Notes: generated by a model from the letters alone, not told the origin. 64,000 nt of DNA from Clostridia bacterium (GCA_045533905.1 JAZSIR010000003.1:28976-92975); one strand, 5' to 3'; shown: positions 20,078 to 59,041, counted from the first letter of the stretch. Translations and numbers: made by a program.

Positions 20078-20091
20078 GATACAGGCAAAAA

Positions 20092-20131
20092 AGAAGCTTC
20101 TCCACGTGTGGAGAAGCTTCTTCTCGTTTTT
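20092..20131 (+). terminator. Rho-independent terminator of hup
   Basis: Perfect 14-bp stem AGAAGCTTCTCCAC/GTGGAGAAGCTTCT followed by TCTCGTTTTT. Confidence 0.8.
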
Positions 20132-20170
20132 GCGGTGTTTTTCGAAAATGAACAGACTAAGACAAATATT

Positions 20171-20410
20171 CTTCTTGCCTTTTTGCGTTCTGGACTGTGG
20201 GGATAGGAAAAAAGATGCAGAAGGGCAAAACTCCACCCGCCGTCGTACATGCGTACTACAAGTGGTGGAGTTTTGTCCTAGCAAAAAGGCGCATATACGA
20301 AGGGACTCTCCAAAATGGAGAGCCCCTTCCTTTGGAAGATTACTTTTAGAGAACGAACCGGCTAAGAAAAATATTTTCCCCGCCTTTTTGCGTTCTGGAC
20401 TTTTTTTACG
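20171..20410. repeat. Copy 1 of a conserved intergenic element of about 190-240 nt: B-box, 5' hairpin module, variable hairpin, B-box
   Basis: Compared with 35595-35810, the following are shared. GGGGATAGGAAAAAAGA..GCAGAA. The hairpin AAAACTCCACC-[26-nt loop containing GTACATGCGTAC]-GGTGGAGTTTT. TAGCAAAA(A)GGCG. The 3' box (T/C)GCCTTTT(T)GCGTTCTGGACTTTTTTTAC. An extra B-box lies at 20171-20196. Confidence 0.6.
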
Positions 20411-20420
20411 AGTCCAAAGC

Positions 20421-20621
20421 TTATTTCATGTCGTTTTCTGCCTTCATGATCATCTTCTTAACCATCTGACCGCCTACAGAACCGGCCTGCTTGCTGGTAA
20501 GGTCGCCATTGTAGCCGTCTTTAAGGTTTACGCCAACTTCGTTTGCAGCTTCCATCTTGAACTTGTCAAGTGCTGCACGTGCTTCGGGAACGAGTGTTCT
20601 GTTATTATTTCTGTTTGCCAT
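20421..20621 (-). CDS. Small acid-soluble spore protein, alpha/beta type
   Basis: 66 aa, ...LVPEARAALDKFKMEAANEVGV...GDLTSKQAGSVGGQMVKKMI. This is the canonical SASP signature. Confidence 0.85.
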   Translation of the reverse strand: MANRNNNRTLVPEARAALDKFKMEAANEVGVNLKDGYNGDLTSKQAGSVGGQMVKKMIMKAENDMK

Positions 20622-23879: not shown

Positions 23880-24089
23880 ATGCCTCCGGAATATAAACCG
23901 CTTTTAATCGTGGCCGTTATTTTTCTCGGCTTTCCCGTTTACTTTTTGCCCAGCTATGTGGCGGCCAAGCGCGAGCATCCAAAAAGAAAGAAAATCCTCT
24001 ACTGGAATCTTTGCACCGCGTGGACCGGGCTAATCGCCTGGGCTATCTTGATGTTTTGGGCAGCTAAAAAAACAGAAACAGAAGAATAA
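23880..24089 (+). CDS. Superinfection-immunity-like small membrane protein (Imm_superinfect family)
   Basis: 69 aa. YFLPSYVAAKREHPKRKKILYWNLCTAWTGLIAWAILMFWAA matches the YFLP..IA..R.H.....I...N...GWT..GWI.AL.WA pattern. Confidence 0.55.
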   Translation: MPPEYKPLLIVAVIFLGFPVYFLPSYVAAKREHPKRKKILYWNLCTAWTGLIAWAILMFWAAKKTETEE

Positions 24090-24116
24090 AAGGGATGTAA
24101 AAAAGGCGTAGAACGC

Positions 24117-24150
24117 AAAAAGGACTCTCCAAAATGGAGAGTCCTTTTAC
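24117..24150. terminator. Bidirectional rho-independent terminator between the Imm-like gene and lon
   Basis: AAAA-GGACTCTCC-AAAAT-GGAGAGTCC-TTTTAC. The same hairpin sequence recurs at 20302 and 32487. Confidence 0.75.
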
Positions 24151-32481: not shown

Positions 32482-32486
32482 AAGAA

Positions 32487-32516
32487 GGGACTCTCAATTT
32501 TTGAGAGTCCCTTTTT
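32487..32516 (+). terminator. Rho-independent terminator after the ABC-F gene
   Basis: GGGACTCTC-AATTTTT-GAGAGTCCC-TTTTT. Confidence 0.8.
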
Positions 32517-35470: not shown

Positions 35471-35485
35471 GGGTTCACCTCCCTT

Positions 35486-35546
35486 TACTAACTGTACTAG
35501 TACACGTGATACAGTTACTATATCATGCAGTATTTCGTTTGTCAAT
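35486..35546 (-). promoter_or_regulatory. Promoter and palindromic operator of the gntR-ABC operon
   Basis: Inverted repeat TACTAACTGTA-N13-TACAGTTACTA, matching 10 of 11 positions. It overlaps a minus-strand TTGACA-17-TATAGT promoter. Confidence 0.55.
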
Positions 35547-35594
35547 ACTTTTTTGGAAAATAATGAAAAAGAGTGGGTTTTTACAACTTCTTTT

Positions 35595-35810
35595 GGGGAA
35601 TAGGAAAAAAAGAGGCAGAACGTTAAAACTCCACCCGACGCCGTACATGCGTACTGCGAGTGGTGGAGTTTTGACGTAGCAAAAGGCGTATAACCGAAGA
35701 AAAATCGAACATATGAGATTTTTCGTCTATAGAAAGATTTTCTTATGTTGTAAAATCTCTGTTTCTGTATTTTTGTTGCCTTTTGCGTTCTGGACTTTTT
35801 TTACATTCCT
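35595..35810. repeat. Copy 2 of the conserved intergenic hairpin / B-box element
   Basis: The modules and their order match those at 20197-20410. There is a compensatory change in the long-range helix: GCAAAAGGC / GCCTTTTGC here versus GCAAAAAGGCG / CGCCTTTTTGC in copy 1. Confidence 0.6.
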
Positions 35811-37327
35811 TACTCGTGGAGAGCGCGGAGTTCCTTGAGCGTTTCTGCTACAAGTACATCGCCGCCCTCGGGCGAAACCTGGTTACAGTAAATGGTAGCA
35901 CTGTAGCCGTGGTTTTTGATGGCACGCTCGTGGGCAAGGTACCCTGTGCGGTTCCCTTCCGGCTGGTCGGTAAGCTGAATAATAAAGGTCTGTGTAAACG
36001 GGCTCTTTGCCTGAATCTGATGCTGGTAATCAATGTACAGCTCAAAGGCATTCGTCGCAAAGGCTACATCACCTATGGAGATTACGTGCAGCTCCATATC
36101 GGTCGTCTTCGTTTTCTGCTGTTCTTCGTATCTTGCAAGAATGCCGCGGAAACGGTTCAGCTTTGCTTCGAGCTTTGCGCGGTCTTCAAAACGTTCAAAG
36201 GCGGTGCCGTCTGTCTTCGGCACATAGGTATCGATAAGTGCCTGCAACTCGCGTTTTGAAAATTCGTACTGTTCTTTCGAAATAAGGCGCTGAGGAAGCT
36301 TGATGGTCTTTACAGTATGTTTTACGCGCGCGTCGCGGATTTTATCCTTCTTGGCCCACTCGAGTACTTCGTCAAACGCCGCCGAGATGCGCTCGGCAAT
36401 ATCATAGCGGTTGTACATTTCCCACGGGCGGTTTAAGAGATGTGCATTCGGCACCTCGCCAAATTTCAGCGCGTAGCGGCGTGCTTCTGCTTCCTTGTAG
36501 TGGAGTGTGCGGGGCGACATATCGCCTGCGGCGGCGCACTGCGAAAGAATATGAATATCGCCGTGTTTTTTGCGGATAAGCTCGCGCACTTCGTTCCAGT
36601 AGTCGGCCGTGAGCATTTCCTCCTGCTCGGAGTTTTGGGAGGGACACGGCACGTTGATGATAGCGCCCGTGAGCTTGTCATTTTTGTCAAAGGTGTAGAG
36701 AAGGTTTACGTAGTGGTCCACATTGCCTTCATAACCGATAAAGTTTTCGTCTTTCGTCGGACCGTACATTTTGGCGTGACCGTCCACGGCGAGAGGGTTA
36801 TTTGCGCCGTTTTCGGCACCGGGGCGAAGGGACCAGTCATCCGAATATAAAACGCGGCGGCTGTGCGCTACCACGGCATAGCCGTAGCCATACGCATAGG
36901 AGCCTTCGTCTCTTGTGTCATAGGCTTCGCAGATAGCTTCCACCGCGAGATTTGACATATAGTCGCGGTATTCGAGTGCAGGGAAGATTTCGATGCCTTC
37001 ATGCGGAAGGCGGGCAAAGGCGGGGTCTTTGTCAAGTCCTGCGCCGCAGTGTGTGTGCGTAATATTAAAGAGTACTTTTTCGGCGGGGATTTCGGGACGG
37101 GTCTTCGTAAGCTTTGCGCGGATATCTTCGATAATAGAACGCCCAGCAACAAAGTCACCCGACATGAAGATGGCAATGTCTTCTCCGTCCTCCACAACGA
37201 GGCAATTTACCATGATGGGGTCGAGTATCCCCTTCGAGAGACGTACACGGAACTGCCCCGGAATATTGACCGGCTCGTCAATCGATACATCTCTTCTGCT
37301 CCAACCAAATTTAAGCATTTTCGTCAC
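35810..37327 (-). CDS. Neutral/alkaline ceramidase-like hydrolase, cytoplasmic
   Basis: The N-terminal region resembles the neutral ceramidase N-domain (...ILDPIMVNCLVVEDGEDIAIFMSGD...VLFNITHTHCGAG versus THTHSGPGG). No signal peptide. GTG start, 4-nt overlap with the upstream GH5 gene. Confidence 0.45.
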   Translation of the reverse strand: MTKMLKFGWSRRDVSIDEPVNIPGQFRVRLSKGILDPIMVNCLVVEDGEDIAIFMSGDFVAGRSIIEDIRAKLTKTRPEIPAEKVLFNITHTHCGAGLDKDPAFARLPHEGIEIFPALEYRDYMSNLAVEAICEAYDTRDEGSYAYGYGYAVVAHSRRVLYSDDWSLRPGAENGANNPLAVDGHAKMYGPTKDENFIGYEGNVDHYVNLLYTFDKNDKLTGAIINVPCPSQNSEQEEMLTADYWNEVRELIRKKHGDIHILSQCAAAGDMSPRTLHYKEAEARRYALKFGEVPNAHLLNRPWEMYNRYDIAERISAAFDEVLEWAKKDKIRDARVKHTVKTIKLPQRLISKEQYEFSKRELQALIDTYVPKTDGTAFERFEDRAKLEAKLNRFRGILARYEEQQKTKTTDMELHVISIGDVAFATNAFELYIDYQHQIQAKSPFTQTFIIQLTDQPEGNRTGYLAHERAIKNHGYSATIYCNQVSPEGGDVLVAETLKELRALHE

Positions 37328-41984: not shown

Positions 41985-42076
41985 TGGCGGAGAAGGAGAG
42001 ATTCGAACTCTCGCACCAGTTTCCCAGCCTACTCCCTTAGCAGGGGAGCCCCTTCGACCTACTTGGGTACTTCTCC
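41985..42076 (-). tRNA. tRNA-Ser (anticodon GCT)
   Basis: 92 nt: GGAGAAG-TA-CCC..GGG-CTCCC-CTGCTAA-GGGAG, a long variable arm, GAGAG-TTCGAAT-CTCTC, CTTCTCC-G-CCA. The D stem is 3 bp, typical of class II tRNAs. Confidence 0.85.
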
Positions 42077-42167: not shown

Positions 42168-42254
42168 TGGCGGAGAAGGTGGGATTCGAACCCACGGCTC
42201 TTTCGAGTCACTGGTTTTCAAGACCAGCTCCTTAAACCGCTCGGACACCTCTCC
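42168..42254 (-). tRNA. tRNA-Ser (anticodon TGA)
   Basis: 87 nt: GGAGAGG...CTGGT-CTTGAAA-ACCAG, a long variable arm, GTGGG-TTCGAAT-CCCAC, CTTCTCC-G-CCA. Confidence 0.85.
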
Positions 42255-56276: not shown

Positions 56277-56334
56277 AGGAATACAATAGACAATTTGATA
56301 AATTTGTATGGTATTCGCTTATTCGGAGGGTTTT

Positions 56335-57075
56335 ATGGAAGATATACGTTTTGACGGCGTACTGCACACAAGAATCCGTAGCGTCGAGTACATCAGTGTA
56401 AACCGGAACCGGGGTTTTTCCTTTGGCTTCCGGGAGGGGAAGCCAAACCACACCTTTTTGTATCTCGAAAGCGGGAAAATGGAATACGACTTTGGGGAAG
56501 AGAAGATAGGCGTTCTGGCAGGGGAGTTTTTATACATTCCGCGGCAGCTGCCGTATACGGCCACGTATCTCCAAAACGGCACCACCACCAAAACGATTGT
56601 GTTCTCGGTAGAGGAGGAAGCGTTTTCGGTGATGGAGAAGCCCTTCCTCCGGAAAAGCCTTGCCATTTCGGCGGTGTTTGATTCGATTACGCCGGAAAAG
56701 ATGCGAAATACGGTGTTTTTATTTGCCAAGGCGTATGAGCTCATTTATCTTCTGGAAAATGAAAAAATGAATATCCCCGAAAAATACAAGCAGATTCTGC
56801 CCGCCATAGAAGAAATGAACCGCAAATATTTTGAAAACCGGAAAATGACATACTATGCAAGCCTTTCACATATGAGCGAATCTAACTTCCGCAAGCTTTT
56901 CAAGGAGTATACCGGTAAAACACCGATTGAATACCGCAATCTCGTCCGCCTTGCCGAAGTGAAAAAAATGCTTGCAAGTGGAGAGTTTACCGTAGCCGAA
57001 GCGGCGTATGCGGCCGGATTTAACAATATGTCCTTCTTTTATGAGGTCTATAACCGCGCGAAAAAGGAAATGTAA
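56335..57075 (+). CDS. AraC-family transcriptional regulator
   Basis: C-terminal HTH SLSHMSESNFRKLFKEYTGKTPIEYRNLVRLAEVKKML...AGFNNMSFFYEVY. Divergent from the glycosidase operon. Confidence 0.8.
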   Translation: MEDIRFDGVLHTRIRSVEYISVNRNRGFSFGFREGKPNHTFLYLESGKMEYDFGEEKIGVLAGEFLYIPRQLPYTATYLQNGTTTKTIVFSVEEEAFSVMEKPFLRKSLAISAVFDSITPEKMRNTVFLFAKAYELIYLLENEKMNIPEKYKQILPAIEEMNRKYFENRKMTYYASLSHMSESNFRKLFKEYTGKTPIEYRNLVRLAEVKKMLASGEFTVAEAAYAAGFNNMSFFYEVYNRAKKEM

Positions 57076-57160
57076 AAAAGTCCGGATTGCAAAAAGGCAA
57101 TTACAGTTTTTCTTGTTTTTATGCCCTTCTGTTTCTTTTTTTCCTATTCCCCCAAAAACT

Positions 57161-57201
57161 AAAAGGGACTGTAAAAACTTAGTTTTTACAGTCCCTTTTT
57201 C
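57161..57201. terminator. Bidirectional terminator between AraC and capD
   Basis: AAAA-GGGACTGTAAAAAC-TTAG-TTTTTACAGTCCC-TTTTT. Confidence 0.8.
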
Positions 57202-57211
57202 TGATTCACCG

Positions 57212-59041
57212 TCAGTTCGGCTGGTATTTATACGTGGGAACAACTTCGGAAATAATTTTCTTTACGGATTCTGTATCTGCAGAAAGTGCGCTTTCAAGTT
57301 TCGCGAGCTTTTCCTGCAGAACCTCGGGGCTTATATCGAGCGGCTGGCCGACGAAAATTTTGCTGTGTGCCGTCTTGGTGAGACCTTCCTCCGCCATCAG
57401 AAGCTCTTCGTAAAGCTTCTCGCCGGGACGAAGACCGGTAAACTCAATTTCGATATCCTTTCCGGGGCGGTAGCCGGAAAGACGGATCATCTTTTCCGCA
57501 AGCTCACAGATGCGGACAGGGCTTCCCATATCGAGAACGAAAATTTCGCCGCCCTTTGCATATGCGGCCGCCTGCAGTACAAGCTGCGCGGCTTCCGGAA
57601 TGGTCATAAAGAAGCGGGTGATTTCGGGGTGTGTTACCGTTACGGGGCCGCCGGCCATAATCTGTTTCCGAAAACGCGGGATTACGGAGCCGTTGGAGCC
57701 GAGAACATTGCCGAAGCGAACGGCCACAAATTCGGTTTTGCTATGCCCGCGCTTCGACTGCACAATCATTTCGCACATACGCTTTGTAGCGCCCATTACA
57801 TTCGTGGGATTTACCGCTTTGTCGGTAGAAATCATAACGAAGCGGCGCACGCCGAATTCTTCAGCACACTGCACAGTGTTATATGTGCCGAACACGTTAT
57901 TTTTAATTGCTTCCGCAGGGCTGTCTTCCATCAGCGGCACATGCTTATGGGCGGCCGCGTGGAACACAATTTCCGGGCGGTGTGTTTCAAAAATTTTTGC
58001 AAGCCTTGCGCGGTCACGTACAGAAGCAATCAGAACGCGAAGGTCAAGATTCGGATATTTTTCAGAAAGCTCGTTCTGGAATTCATAGGTGGTATTTTCA
58101 TAAATATCCACGATGACAAGTCTGCGCGGGGAGTATTTTGCAATTTGCCGGCAAAGCTCGCTGCCGATGGAACCACCGCCACCCGTTACCAGAACGACCT
58201 TATCGTAGATTTCCTGCTGCAAAAGCTGATTGTCGAGCGTAATCGGGTCACGCTCGAGTAAGTCTTCAATGGCTACCTCGCGCATCTGCATAAGGGTACT
58301 CTTGCCGTGAAGCAAGGCCTCCATACCGGGGAGAATCTGCACCTTTTTGCCGGTGGAACTGCAAATATCCAGGATTTCTGTTTTGTCCTTCGGCGAAACA
58401 TCATAAATGGCAAAGATAATTTCTTCCACATTTTCTGCCTTTACGATTTCCGGAATATCCTCACGTGTGCCGAGCACCCGGGTGCCGTATACACGCTGGT
58501 GGAGCTTCATCATACTGTCATCGATAAGGCCTACCACGCGGTAGTTAAGCCTATCACTTTCTTTGATATCGCGGAGAAGTGAAACGGCAAGTTTCCCTGC
58601 ACCGATAATCAGAACGCGTTTACCGCCCTTGCCGCCGCGCCCGCTTACAAGCTTACACAAAAAGCGGATGCCGAGGCGGAAGGCTGCGATCAGCATCGTA
58701 ATATCTATGGCCGCTGTGAAATTCAGCTTCGGATAGAATATACCGTCTGCCAAAAAGAGACCGGATAAAATCGTAGCTACACCTGCCACGGCGCATGCAA
58801 ATAAAAGGCGCATATATTCCGATATACTGGCAAAGAGCCAGTCCACCTGATAAATATGAAACGCCGACAGAGAGGCCAGATAGAAAACGGAAGCAACACA
58901 AATTACGGGAAGCCCTTTTGTGAAGTACCAGCCAAACTCAGCGAGCGGGAAAATGCTTATCAGGACGAATATATACGCGAAGAAGCATAAAAGAATATCG
59001 ATGGGAAAAACGTAGCGATTTCGTATGTTTAATTTAATCAT
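57212..59041 (-). CDS. Membrane-anchored polysaccharide biosynthesis protein CapD/PglF-like (UDP-sugar 4,6-dehydratase)
   Basis: N-terminal TM helices, a CoA-binding-like domain, and an SDR fold VLVTGGGGSIGSELCRQI. Confidence 0.8.
   Translation of the reverse strand: MIKLNIRNRYVFPIDILLCFFAYIFVLISIFPLAEFGWYFTKGLPVICVASVFYLASLSAFHIYQVDWLFASISEYMRLLFACAVAGVATILSGLFLADGIFYPKLNFTAAIDITMLIAAFRLGIRFLCKLVSGRGGKGGKRVLIIGAGKLAVSLLRDIKESDRLNYRVVGLIDDSMMKLHQRVYGTRVLGTREDIPEIVKAENVEEIIFAIYDVSPKDKTEILDICSSTGKKVQILPGMEALLHGKSTLMQMREVAIEDLLERDPITLDNQLLQQEIYDKVVLVTGGGGSIGSELCRQIAKYSPRRLVIVDIYENTTYEFQNELSEKYPNLDLRVLIASVRDRARLAKIFETHRPEIVFHAAAHKHVPLMEDSPAEAIKNNVFGTYNTVQCAEEFGVRRFVMISTDKAVNPTNVMGATKRMCEMIVQSKRGHSKTEFVAVRFGNVLGSNGSVIPRFRKQIMAGGPVTVTHPEITRFFMTIPEAAQLVLQAAAYAKGGEIFVLDMGSPVRICELAEKMIRLSGYRPGKDIEIEFTGLRPGEKLYEELLMAEEGLTKTAHSKIFVGQPLDISPEVLQEKLAKLESALSADTESVKKIISEVVPTYKYQPN

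Follow-up and report, generated by a model that had tools for sequence, protein, structure and literature searches.

What is the structured sequence that occurs more than once between the genes of a 64,000-nt stretch of Clostridia bacterium DNA (GCA_045533905.1, JAZSIR010000003.1:28976-92975; hereafter the window)? A first-pass annotation, made from the sequence alone, had described there two copies of an intergenic element consisting, in order, of a 5' box (box i), a conserved hairpin (ii), a short box (iii), a variable hairpin-forming insert (iv) and a 3' box (v), and had proposed either a non-coding RNA or a repeat resembling REP sequences or miniature inverted-repeat transposable elements (MITEs). 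Our results point to an apparently undescribed, large family of non-coding repeats of about 220 nt in uncultured gut Clostridia. We consider the element to be, probably though not with certainty, a non-autonomous structured interspersed repeat of uncultured Oscillospirales that is embedded in terminators. What the family is, where it is placed and which of its strands folds are well supported.

All of the described features are present in both stretches and follow one order. The 5' box matches exactly or almost exactly in both (GGGGATAGGAAAAAAGATGCAGAA at 20199 and GGGGAATAGGAAAAAAAGAGGCAGAA at 35595), and it is followed by the hairpin AAAACTCCACC...GGTGGAGTTTT at 20227-20274 and 35625-35672, with its GTAC-ATGC-GTAC mini-hairpin; these two sites are the only ones in the window where the arms AAAACTCCACC and GGTGGAGTTTT occur without mismatch. 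Boxes iii and v read TAGCAAAAAGGCG with CGCCTTTTTGC in copy 1 and TAGCAAAAGGCG with GCCTTTTGC in copy 2, and the reported difference of 5A/5T versus 4A/4T between the copies is real. The 3' box GCGTTCTGGACTTTTTTTAC lies at 20390-20409 and 35785-35804. Its part GCGTTCTGGACT is found exactly three times in the window, in these two boxes and at 20185-20196, in a 3' box that had been called solitary; the box is there, but it forms the last part of a partial copy of 58 nt spanning 20139-20196. The unit is also longer than the 190 nt or so first proposed: it measures about 215 nt and runs to 20416 in copy 1 and to 35809 in copy 2, and pairing extends beyond boxes iii and v, box i pairing with the end of box v in a long terminal stem. 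The copies are 87% identical over a core of 79 nt. The minimum free energy (MFE) of copy 1, which adopts the family fold described below, is -90.6 kcal/mol (z = -8.4 against shuffled sequence), and the z-score of copy 2 is -7.8. Because of this core identity, of these z-scores and of the match of both copies to a covariance model made without window sequences, the likeness of copies 1 and 2 is well beyond chance.

A scan of species-representative genomes with a single 5'-box pattern placed the family at no fewer than 118 loci, the loci listed being an arbitrary sample, with about 59 different assemblies among 80 of the matches listed. Nearly all of the hosts are metagenome-assembled genomes (MAGs) that come from the guts of ruminants, rodents and humans and bear the label Acutalibacteraceae, Oscillospiraceae or 'Clostridia'; one match, in a Neisseria coding region (L030), is a chance match, and a single match in 2.9 million viral contigs indicates no phage association. 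The consensus runs from GGGGATAGGAAAAAAAGATGCAGAACGGACAAACYGAGC through a variable hairpin to CTTRCCCGAAGGCGTAC, a loop and GTACGTCGAGNGGYGARGTTTGTTCGTAGCAWAAA.., then through a variable region with a strong hairpin to ..TTTWTGCGGTCTGSRCTTTTTTTACATCCCC. Full copies are mostly 220-260 nt long. The total range is 47-280 nt, and both ends are kept throughout, forms of 47, 77, 90, 145 and 190 nt lacking interior parts. Many matches of the scan lie less than 100 nt from a contig end, which is what a repeat that interrupts assembly would produce. Contigs of many assemblies stop within the element or right beside it (e.g., the start of L120 and of L147, the end of L133, and many of L001-L118), so that in these MAGs the repeat systematically causes assemblies to break.

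A covariance model made from 43 copies outside the window recovers copy 2 with 74 bits (E = 1e-14) and copy 1 with 66 bits (E = 6e-13), as well as a third, short copy (28 bits). The window copies are therefore members of the family, in a diverged, G+C-richer lineage from which one hairpin of the consensus (P2a, see below) is absent, as seen in copy 1. The checks suggested by the first-pass annotation turn out in its favour: further copies and covariation have been found, and no match to Rfam or to an insertion sequence. With Rfam 15, only two tRNAs scored above the gathering threshold in the whole window; these are two tRNA genes with long variable arms on the minus strand (41988-42076 and 42171-42254), the sole Rfam matches there. 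The copy 1 region searched at E values up to 10 gave sub-threshold noise only, as did the copy of locus L017, and eight loci with consensus-type and expanded copies gave no match. A full-text search of a literature library with motif strings and related topics returned nothing specific to the family. No conserved open reading frame (ORF) is present in 46 copies, the ATG of the 5' box being absent in 23 of them and the end of the frame varying in position otherwise, which rules out a small protein-coding gene.

The consensus structure of 46 full copies was predicted with RNAalifold. A terminal stem of about 22 bp, P1, is predicted to consist of GGG/CCC, A7G/CU7 and UGCAGA/UCUGCG, and is followed by a U-tract. 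Inside it, a three-way-junction domain is formed by P2 (ACGGACAAACY / RGUUUGUUCGU), by the variable hairpin P2a and by P2b (GGCGUAC / GUACGUC), the last adjoining an internal loop, CGAA/GAGN, that is conserved and rich in purines. P3 (GCAWAAAGGC / GCCUUUWUGC) corresponds to boxes iii and v and is predicted to close over a long range around the variable region. Peripheral stems carry large structured expansions in a few loci (L003 and L098, with an insert of about 200 nt in the P2b loop; L095, with an insert after P2b), and the interior of one copy (L117) is replaced by a series of hairpins. The conserved loops, when compared by eye, did not fit K-turn, sarcin-ricin or hammerhead cores.

In these 46 copies, 96.7% of the cells assigned to helices are paired, compared to 86.6% in shuffled alignments, and 26 of the 47 consensus pairs show changes on both sides, compared to 14.3 in shuffles. 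The covariation score is 0.320; shuffles give 0.143, none of 500 reaching the observed value, and sliding the partners by 1-3 columns gives 0.04-0.06. The compensatory change noticed at first between boxes iii and v holds family-wide (GCAAAAAGGC/GCCTTTTTGC versus GCATAAAAC/GTTTTATGC), with double changes in 7 of the 10 P3 pairs, and the conserved long-range helix that had been proposed to enclose the variable hairpin and to end in a U-tract is likewise found across the family. The strand can be told as well. Helix cells contain 157 G.U and 14 A.C combinations, A.C being what a G.U pair of the opposite strand would appear as; the alignment folds with an energy of -39.1 on the plus strand and of -11.7 on the minus strand; and each of the 46 copies, folded singly, has a lower MFE on the plus than on the minus strand (mean -84.0 against -72.0 kcal/mol). 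These results show that the fold is conserved by compensatory changes and that it is specific to the plus strand only.

The genes around the element were called with a crude ORF finder. A convergent gene follows the 3' end of the element in 39 of the 50 copies that have a downstream neighbour, its stop codon lying at most 15 nt from the element in 36 of these 39, and none of 43 classifiable copies lies in a region between divergent genes. The abutting genes encode UDP-GlcNAc 2-epimerase, class-III aminotransferase, KsgA, ProC, enolase, SerRS, transaldolase, TatD and Fe-alcohol dehydrogenase, all of them unrelated housekeeping functions; gene-specific cis-regulation is ruled out because the neighbouring genes are unrelated. 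A T-run is usual after the terminal ...ACATCCCC, at least 4 T being present in the 8 nt past the 3' end in 45 of 59 copies. On the other side, a hairpin with a T-rich tail lies 6-10 nt ahead of most copies; under strict criteria (a hairpin of at least 10 bp, a T-rich tail, at most 16 nt upstream), it is detected for 59 of 116 copies and for 18 of 580 random positions. The left flanks vary (..TTTTTAG, ..TTTTCG, ..AAAAG and others). The preceding hairpin is usually of one kind, called T-type below; sometimes it is a gene-specific terminator, such as that of the HU gene before copy 1, and sometimes the 3' end of another copy. Copies without it have an A-tract ahead (..AAAAG followed by GGGATAGG), and there P1 itself may stand in for a terminator stem.

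The T-type hairpin, GGGGCTGTAAAAAAAC-loop-GTTTTTTTACAGCCCC (also given as GGGGCUGUAAAAAAAC-loop-GUUUUUUUACAGCCCC), is widespread in gut Clostridia and occurs about once per locus. It scores as a terminator in sequence-based prediction, including on the strand opposite the element. Its stem is recognisably the same as P1 (GGGGCTGTAAAAAAAC versus GGGGATAGGAAAAAAAG, and GTTTTTTTACAGCCCC versus CTTTTTTTACATCCCC), and wherever hairpin and element are adjacent, it is always the 5' end of the element that faces the hairpin. Of the 51 T hairpins in loci centred on the element, 50 are in direct contact with one. Metagenomes were also scanned in an unbiased way for the hairpin itself; this gave at least 120 loci, and among those listed a canonical 5' box is adjacent in 17 and a diverged one in about 10 more. 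As so few have an adjacent 5' box, T hairpins therefore occur also alone, as terminators between genes. The sequence ...TTTTTTTACAKCCCC, repeated in the T arm and at the element end, was considered as a target duplication or att core and was rejected as a general rule, because the two are usually different (ACAGCC versus ACATCC) and because the T arms covary together. In human-gut contigs among L123-L242 (e.g., L130, L138, L158 and L194), the T hairpin often stands beside a conserved hairpin, AAAATGCCGGnATCCCnnCCGGCATTTT, which has 22 matches among the at least 120 listed T-hairpin loci; this suggests that T hairpins may combine with other repeat modules. In L237 (582-611), the T-hairpin loop is inverted compared to that of L133 (1522-1550) and L147 (32-60), CTTGCG against GCAAG, and the outer stem differs too (GTG/CAC versus GGGG/CCCC).

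With this hairpin and the family fold, the window can be read as follows.

20091-20131, plus strand: terminator hairpin and T-run of the HU gene, a 14-bp stem followed by CTCGTTTTTG
20139-20196, plus strand: partial upstream copy, 3' module only, ending in GCCTTTTTGCGTTCTGGACT; 83% identical to 20344-20401
20199-20416, plus strand: copy 1, full length, in the family fold; 66.2 bits, E = 5.7e-13 for 20199-20292
20199-20224, plus strand: 5' arm of P1 in copy 1 (box i), pairing with 20392-20416
20223-20278, plus strand: P2 helix of copy 1, GGGCAAAACTCCACC / GGTGGAGTTTTGTCC, enclosing the P2b hairpin GTCGTAC-ATGC-GTACTAC
20281-20291, plus strand: 5' arm of P3 in copy 1 (box iii), GCAAAAAGGCG; consensus helices 6 and 7
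20292-20380, plus strand: variable insert of copy 1, with the hairpin GAAGGGACTCTCCAAAATGGAGAGCCCCTTC (20299-20329)
20381-20416, plus strand: 3' arm of P3 in copy 1, CGCCTTTTTGC, then 3' arm of P1, GTTCTGGACTTTTTTTACGAGTCC (box v)
24090-24149, minus strand: truncated copy, 3' terminal module only, reading GGGATGTAAAAAAGGCGTAGAACGCAAAAAGG on the plus strand
35565-35594, plus strand: putative relic, degenerate in sequence, of the 3' arm of a T-type hairpin with its spacer, GGGTTTTTACAACTTCTTTTG, judged by comparison with upstream regions of the family
35595-35809, plus strand: copy 2, full length; 74 bits, E = 1e-14; z = -7.8
57066-57153, minus strand: copy 3, short form, with 5' box GGGGGAATAGGAAAAAAAGAAACAGAAGGGC and 3' box GCCTTTTTGCAATCCGGACTTTTTTACATTTCC; 28 bits, E = 2e-4
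57165-57195, minus strand: T-type terminator hairpin, GGGACTGTAAAAACTAAGTTTTTACAGTCCC, between copy 3 and the stop codon (57212-57214) of the minus-strand ORF 57212-59041

The HU terminator, which is the hairpin preceding copy 1, has an A-tract ahead of its stem, hence its use in both directions is possible. At the other end of copy 1, the stop codon of the minus-strand SASP gene (20421-20423) lies 4 nt past the element, and the stop codon of the minus-strand ORF 35810-37327 directly abuts copy 2. Copy 3 has neither the P2 domain nor the central hairpin; the last three codons and the TAA (57073-57075) of an AraC-like ORF on the plus strand (56308-57075) come from its 3' end (..AAG GAA ATG TAA). 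The truncated copy starts 2 nt past the stop codon (24087-24089) of a plus-strand gene and is fused to a hairpin, GGACTCTCCAAAATGGAGAGTCC, followed by TTTTAC. The 'variable' hairpin of copy 1 (GGGACTCTCC..GGAGAGCCCC, 20299-20329) is found near-identical at 24121-24143 and 32484-32513, as terminator hairpins of two other genes. A near-consensus promoter predicted on the minus strand (35517-35545; TTGACA, 17 nt, TATAGT, with TG) belongs to the downstream regulator gene, a minus-strand ORF starting near 35473, and is located in the gap that separates this ORF from copy 2.

This arrangement bears on one of the options raised at first, namely that the element could be a cis-acting structured 3' untranslated region (UTR) or terminator of the minus-strand gene that abuts it. 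An opposite-strand stop codon is indeed present 0-10 nt from the 3' end in most copies, a transcript of that gene would cross the element as far as the T hairpin, itself scored as a terminator in this direction, and it is precisely the part next to the gene that the truncated copy (24090-24149) has kept. The option is nevertheless unsupported because the fold is specific to the plus strand: it is much weaker on the minus strand, where A.C mismatches stand in place of G.U pairs. Moreover, no such gene is present in 11 of 50 copies and the neighbouring genes are functionally unrelated, so that we regard a minus-strand 3' UTR as very improbable.

Evidence that the element proliferates comes from orthologous sites. 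In L088, L118 and L042, the stop codon of the upstream gene is followed by 6-7 nt, a plain hairpin (GGCTGT...ATAGCC) and TTTTTTATTGCA..., the last part of which belongs to the next promoter. At the same site in L182, the stop codon is followed by a T hairpin, TCTTTTTAG, a full element ending in ACAGACCC, and then TTTTTTGTTGCA.... The composite of T hairpin, spacer and element thus exactly replaces the resident terminator hairpin, and the resident T-run follows the element. Beyond the promoter, L182 (minus strand) and the three orthologous loci have in common a conserved structured-looking leader, AAAATGGAATCGGGTGAAAATCCCGAACGGGCACGCCGCCGT..., riboswitch-like in appearance. Other comparisons reveal the parts in different combinations: L237 has a T hairpin only, and L133 and L147, whose flanks are 97% identical to its own, have a T hairpin and the start of an element, at which the contig breaks; L104 and L057 have flanks and element in common and differ in the T hairpin; in L155 as in L044, a T hairpin with an element occupies a site that holds an ordinary terminator in the other locus. 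Three tandem units of 153 nt are found in L052, and the layout of a partial 3' part followed by a full copy is shared by window copy 1, L122, L088 and L118. Over their first 95 nt, copies from the same assembly have a median identity of 98%, compared to 75% between assemblies. The orthologous SASP-MutS locus of relatives (L119 and L120, 80% identical) contains a different SASP gene with its own terminator and no element; it was considered as an empty site for copy 1 and rejected as too diverged. On account of the filled and empty sites, the tandem arrays, the deletion forms that retain both ends and the 98% identity within genomes, the element is shown to be a dispersed, proliferating, non-coding repeat placed at intrinsic terminators.

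A second option was that of independent small RNAs (sRNAs), i.e., a multi-copy family of independently transcribed, trans-acting plus-strand RNAs, insulated by the upstream terminator, ended by P1 and its U-tract, and binding a protein or a target through their loops. The strand of this proposal is confirmed, and several of the observations would suit it: unpaired purines are conserved in a plus-strand-specific fold, a U-tract is present past the 3' end and a terminator just upstream, and the expansions of P2a and P2b (L003, L098 and L095) are like those of functional RNAs. However, no sigma-70-type promoter was found upstream of the element, where the only conserved sequence is the terminator, and the consensus sequences of sigma-H, -E, -F, -G and -K did not fit the upstream region either. 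Several copies per 64 kb, contig breaks at the element, deletion forms reduced to the two ends, presence or absence at orthologous sites, and tandem and partial copies also speak against such a family, which we therefore hold to be an unlikely, although not negligible, explanation.

The proliferation could alternatively be that of a classical MITE, derived from a DNA transposon by deletion and mobilised in trans by a transposase acting on its terminal inverted repeats; the hairpin potential would then be a by-product. Inverted-repeat-like ends are indeed present: GGGGATAGGAAAAAAAG...CTTTTTTTACATCCCC correspond to consensus helices 1 and 2 and form inverted termini of about 17-22 nt, which are imperfect in that an AGG/AC internal loop interrupts them. 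Small size, the lack of an ORF, the retention of both ends in all deletion forms, insertion polymorphism and homogeneity within genomes are in agreement with it too. The target-site duplication is what fails, none being seen across 60 3' ends, 116 5' ends and the filled/empty site, where T-runs could hide a short one. In addition, the internal helices covary, and on one strand only, which is not required of a double-stranded DNA transposon. A longer element with the same ends was not found either (no pair of 5' and 3' boxes more than 520 nt apart in at least 118 loci), and no recurrent protein family or transposase appeared among 403 ORFs within 2.5 kb of copies, in the 8-kb loci around copies that were covered. 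The loci do contain a genuine MITE, unrelated to the repeat and about 270 bp long, whose terminal inverted repeats are clean (TAGGGTGAAATGAGTTATCCGAACC... / ...GGTTCGGATAATTCCTTTCACCCTA). It has inserted between P2a and P2b in L104 (minus strand), L113 and L031, apparently at TA, and has free copies in L024 (5660-5931) and L017 (1-141); it looks quite different from the repeat. A classical MITE is thus, in our view, an improbable explanation, even more so than sRNAs.

Other mobile elements were also considered. An IS200/IS605-derived element (PATE, omega/reRNA) was rejected, given the variable left flanks, the inverted-repeat termini and the absence of a recurrent neighbouring ORF; neither the window nor eight family loci contain a match to the Rfam families IS605-orfB or HEARO. 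A group II intron was rejected as well, the unit starting with GGGGAUAGG and measuring 220-260 nt, as compared to more than 500 nt for the ribozyme.

We therefore return to the terminator-embedded repeat as the reading that we favour. Seen on the strand 5' GGGGAUAGGAAAAAAAG ... CUUUUUUUACAUCCCC 3', the element is built like a giant intrinsic-terminator hairpin, P1 resembling the T-type hairpin. As to its spread and its effect on the host, we infer that it would be a selfish element whose plus strand, folded as single-stranded RNA or DNA, would serve as the propagating form. The family would keep its fold because spread needs this folded strand; covariation among recent copies reflects what propagating lineages must keep, and the fold is for this reason taken as a requirement of propagation. 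The conserved junction and the CGAA/GAGN loop could provide the recognition surface. Landing beside an intrinsic terminator hairpin, or in place of it, would have a low cost for the host. P1 combined with the resident U-tract, which has the form of a terminator, and the adjacent T hairpin would preserve the termination of neighbouring genes. Insertions would be tolerated because termination keeps working in this way, and promoter regions would be avoided because tolerance is restricted to places where termination is preserved.

Several results weigh against this reading. A consistent target-site duplication is missing, and the distance that separates a 5' end from the hairpin or 3' end ahead of it varies from 3 to 22 nt. 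The filled/empty comparisons involve genomes that are 77-97% identical, two cases being cut by contig ends, and none of them represents a single clean insertion event. The missing promoter counts here again, and 18 of 43 contexts have both neighbours on the opposite strand, so that read-through could not make the plus-strand RNA there. A stem closing across about 200 nt is not typical of an intrinsic terminator, and P1 is not called by a simple terminator scan because its arms are about 200 nt apart. Finally, the context counts depend on the crude ORF finder mentioned above.

One bolder possibility, which we advance as a speculation, is that the repeat is a new kind of small mobile structured RNA or folded single-stranded DNA that targets intrinsic terminators and depends on its plus-strand fold to propagate; it could be, for instance, a non-autonomous retroelement or a recombinase substrate. 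The three-way junction and the purine-rich loop could then be a recognition or catalytic core, and the T hairpins empty sites or relics.

If confirmed, the terminator-embedded repeat would add a large family of structured repeats to a major uncultured gut group, the Acutalibacteraceae and Oscillospiraceae of ruminants, rodents and humans, and would account for recurrent contig breaks in their MAGs. It would also mean that a sizeable share of gene-end terminators is built from, or invaded by, one repeated module. Covariation on one strand, found with neither a promoter nor a protein partner, raises the question of which single-stranded intermediate is copied and by which enzyme. The family alignment could be used for a new Rfam-type model, and the repeat as a marker for strain typing.

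How does this family compare with known systems? MITEs have a similar size, no ORF, inverted-repeat-like termini, a similar copy number and insertion polymorphism; in contrast to them, the family has no target-site duplication, no autonomous partner found in the loci covered, and internal helices that covary in a strand-specific manner. Inverted pairs of DNA uptake sequences and uptake signal sequences (DUS/USS) are reminiscent of the T-type hairpin, in that a short conserved sequence forms, as an inverted pair, the terminator hairpin of many genes; the T hairpin, however, is found about once per locus and not at high density, and nothing indicates that it takes part in DNA uptake. With class C (IIC) group II introns the analogy can only be functional: they also insert just past intrinsic terminator hairpins, in the terminator orientation, with an RNA fold under selection, whereas the family lacks a GUGYG 5' end, domain V/VI and an intron-encoded protein, and gives no match to an Rfam intron.

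BOX, ERIC and bcr1 repeats, of S. pneumoniae, enterobacteria and the B. cereus group respectively, are likewise small, non-coding, dispersed and modular, with optional internal modules; they are predicted to form stable RNA folds with compensatory changes, and are intergenic and close to genes. Their sequences are unrelated to those of the family, which is furthermore bound up with terminator hairpins, to one of which its terminal stem is homologous, and is strongly strand-asymmetric; bcr1 and RUP generate target duplications, unlike the Clostridia family, where none was seen. The REP/BIME (REPIN) sequences of Proteobacteria are abundant, species-specific extragenic palindromes of gene 3' ends, found in convergent or co-directional gaps and not at promoters. 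They form modular composites and tandem arrays, and can act as terminators or as 3' structures of mRNAs. Imperfect palindromes at gene 3' ends that are excluded from promoter regions are also what the context counts, the T hairpins and P1 reveal here, and the small T-type hairpin resembles a REP doublet. The differences are the conserved multi-helix interior of about 200 nt with its three-way junction, the Clostridia host and an unrelated sequence; no RAYT-type transposase was seen near copies in the 8-kb loci, where a single-copy RAYT gene located elsewhere in the genome would be missed. The family is closest in behaviour to repeats of the REP/BIME and BOX/ERIC/bcr1 kind, and similar in its choice of target to class C group II introns. 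It is a family within the 'small structured interspersed repeats', set apart by a closing stem that is like a terminator hairpin, by a complex conserved interior and by a strict strand asymmetry.

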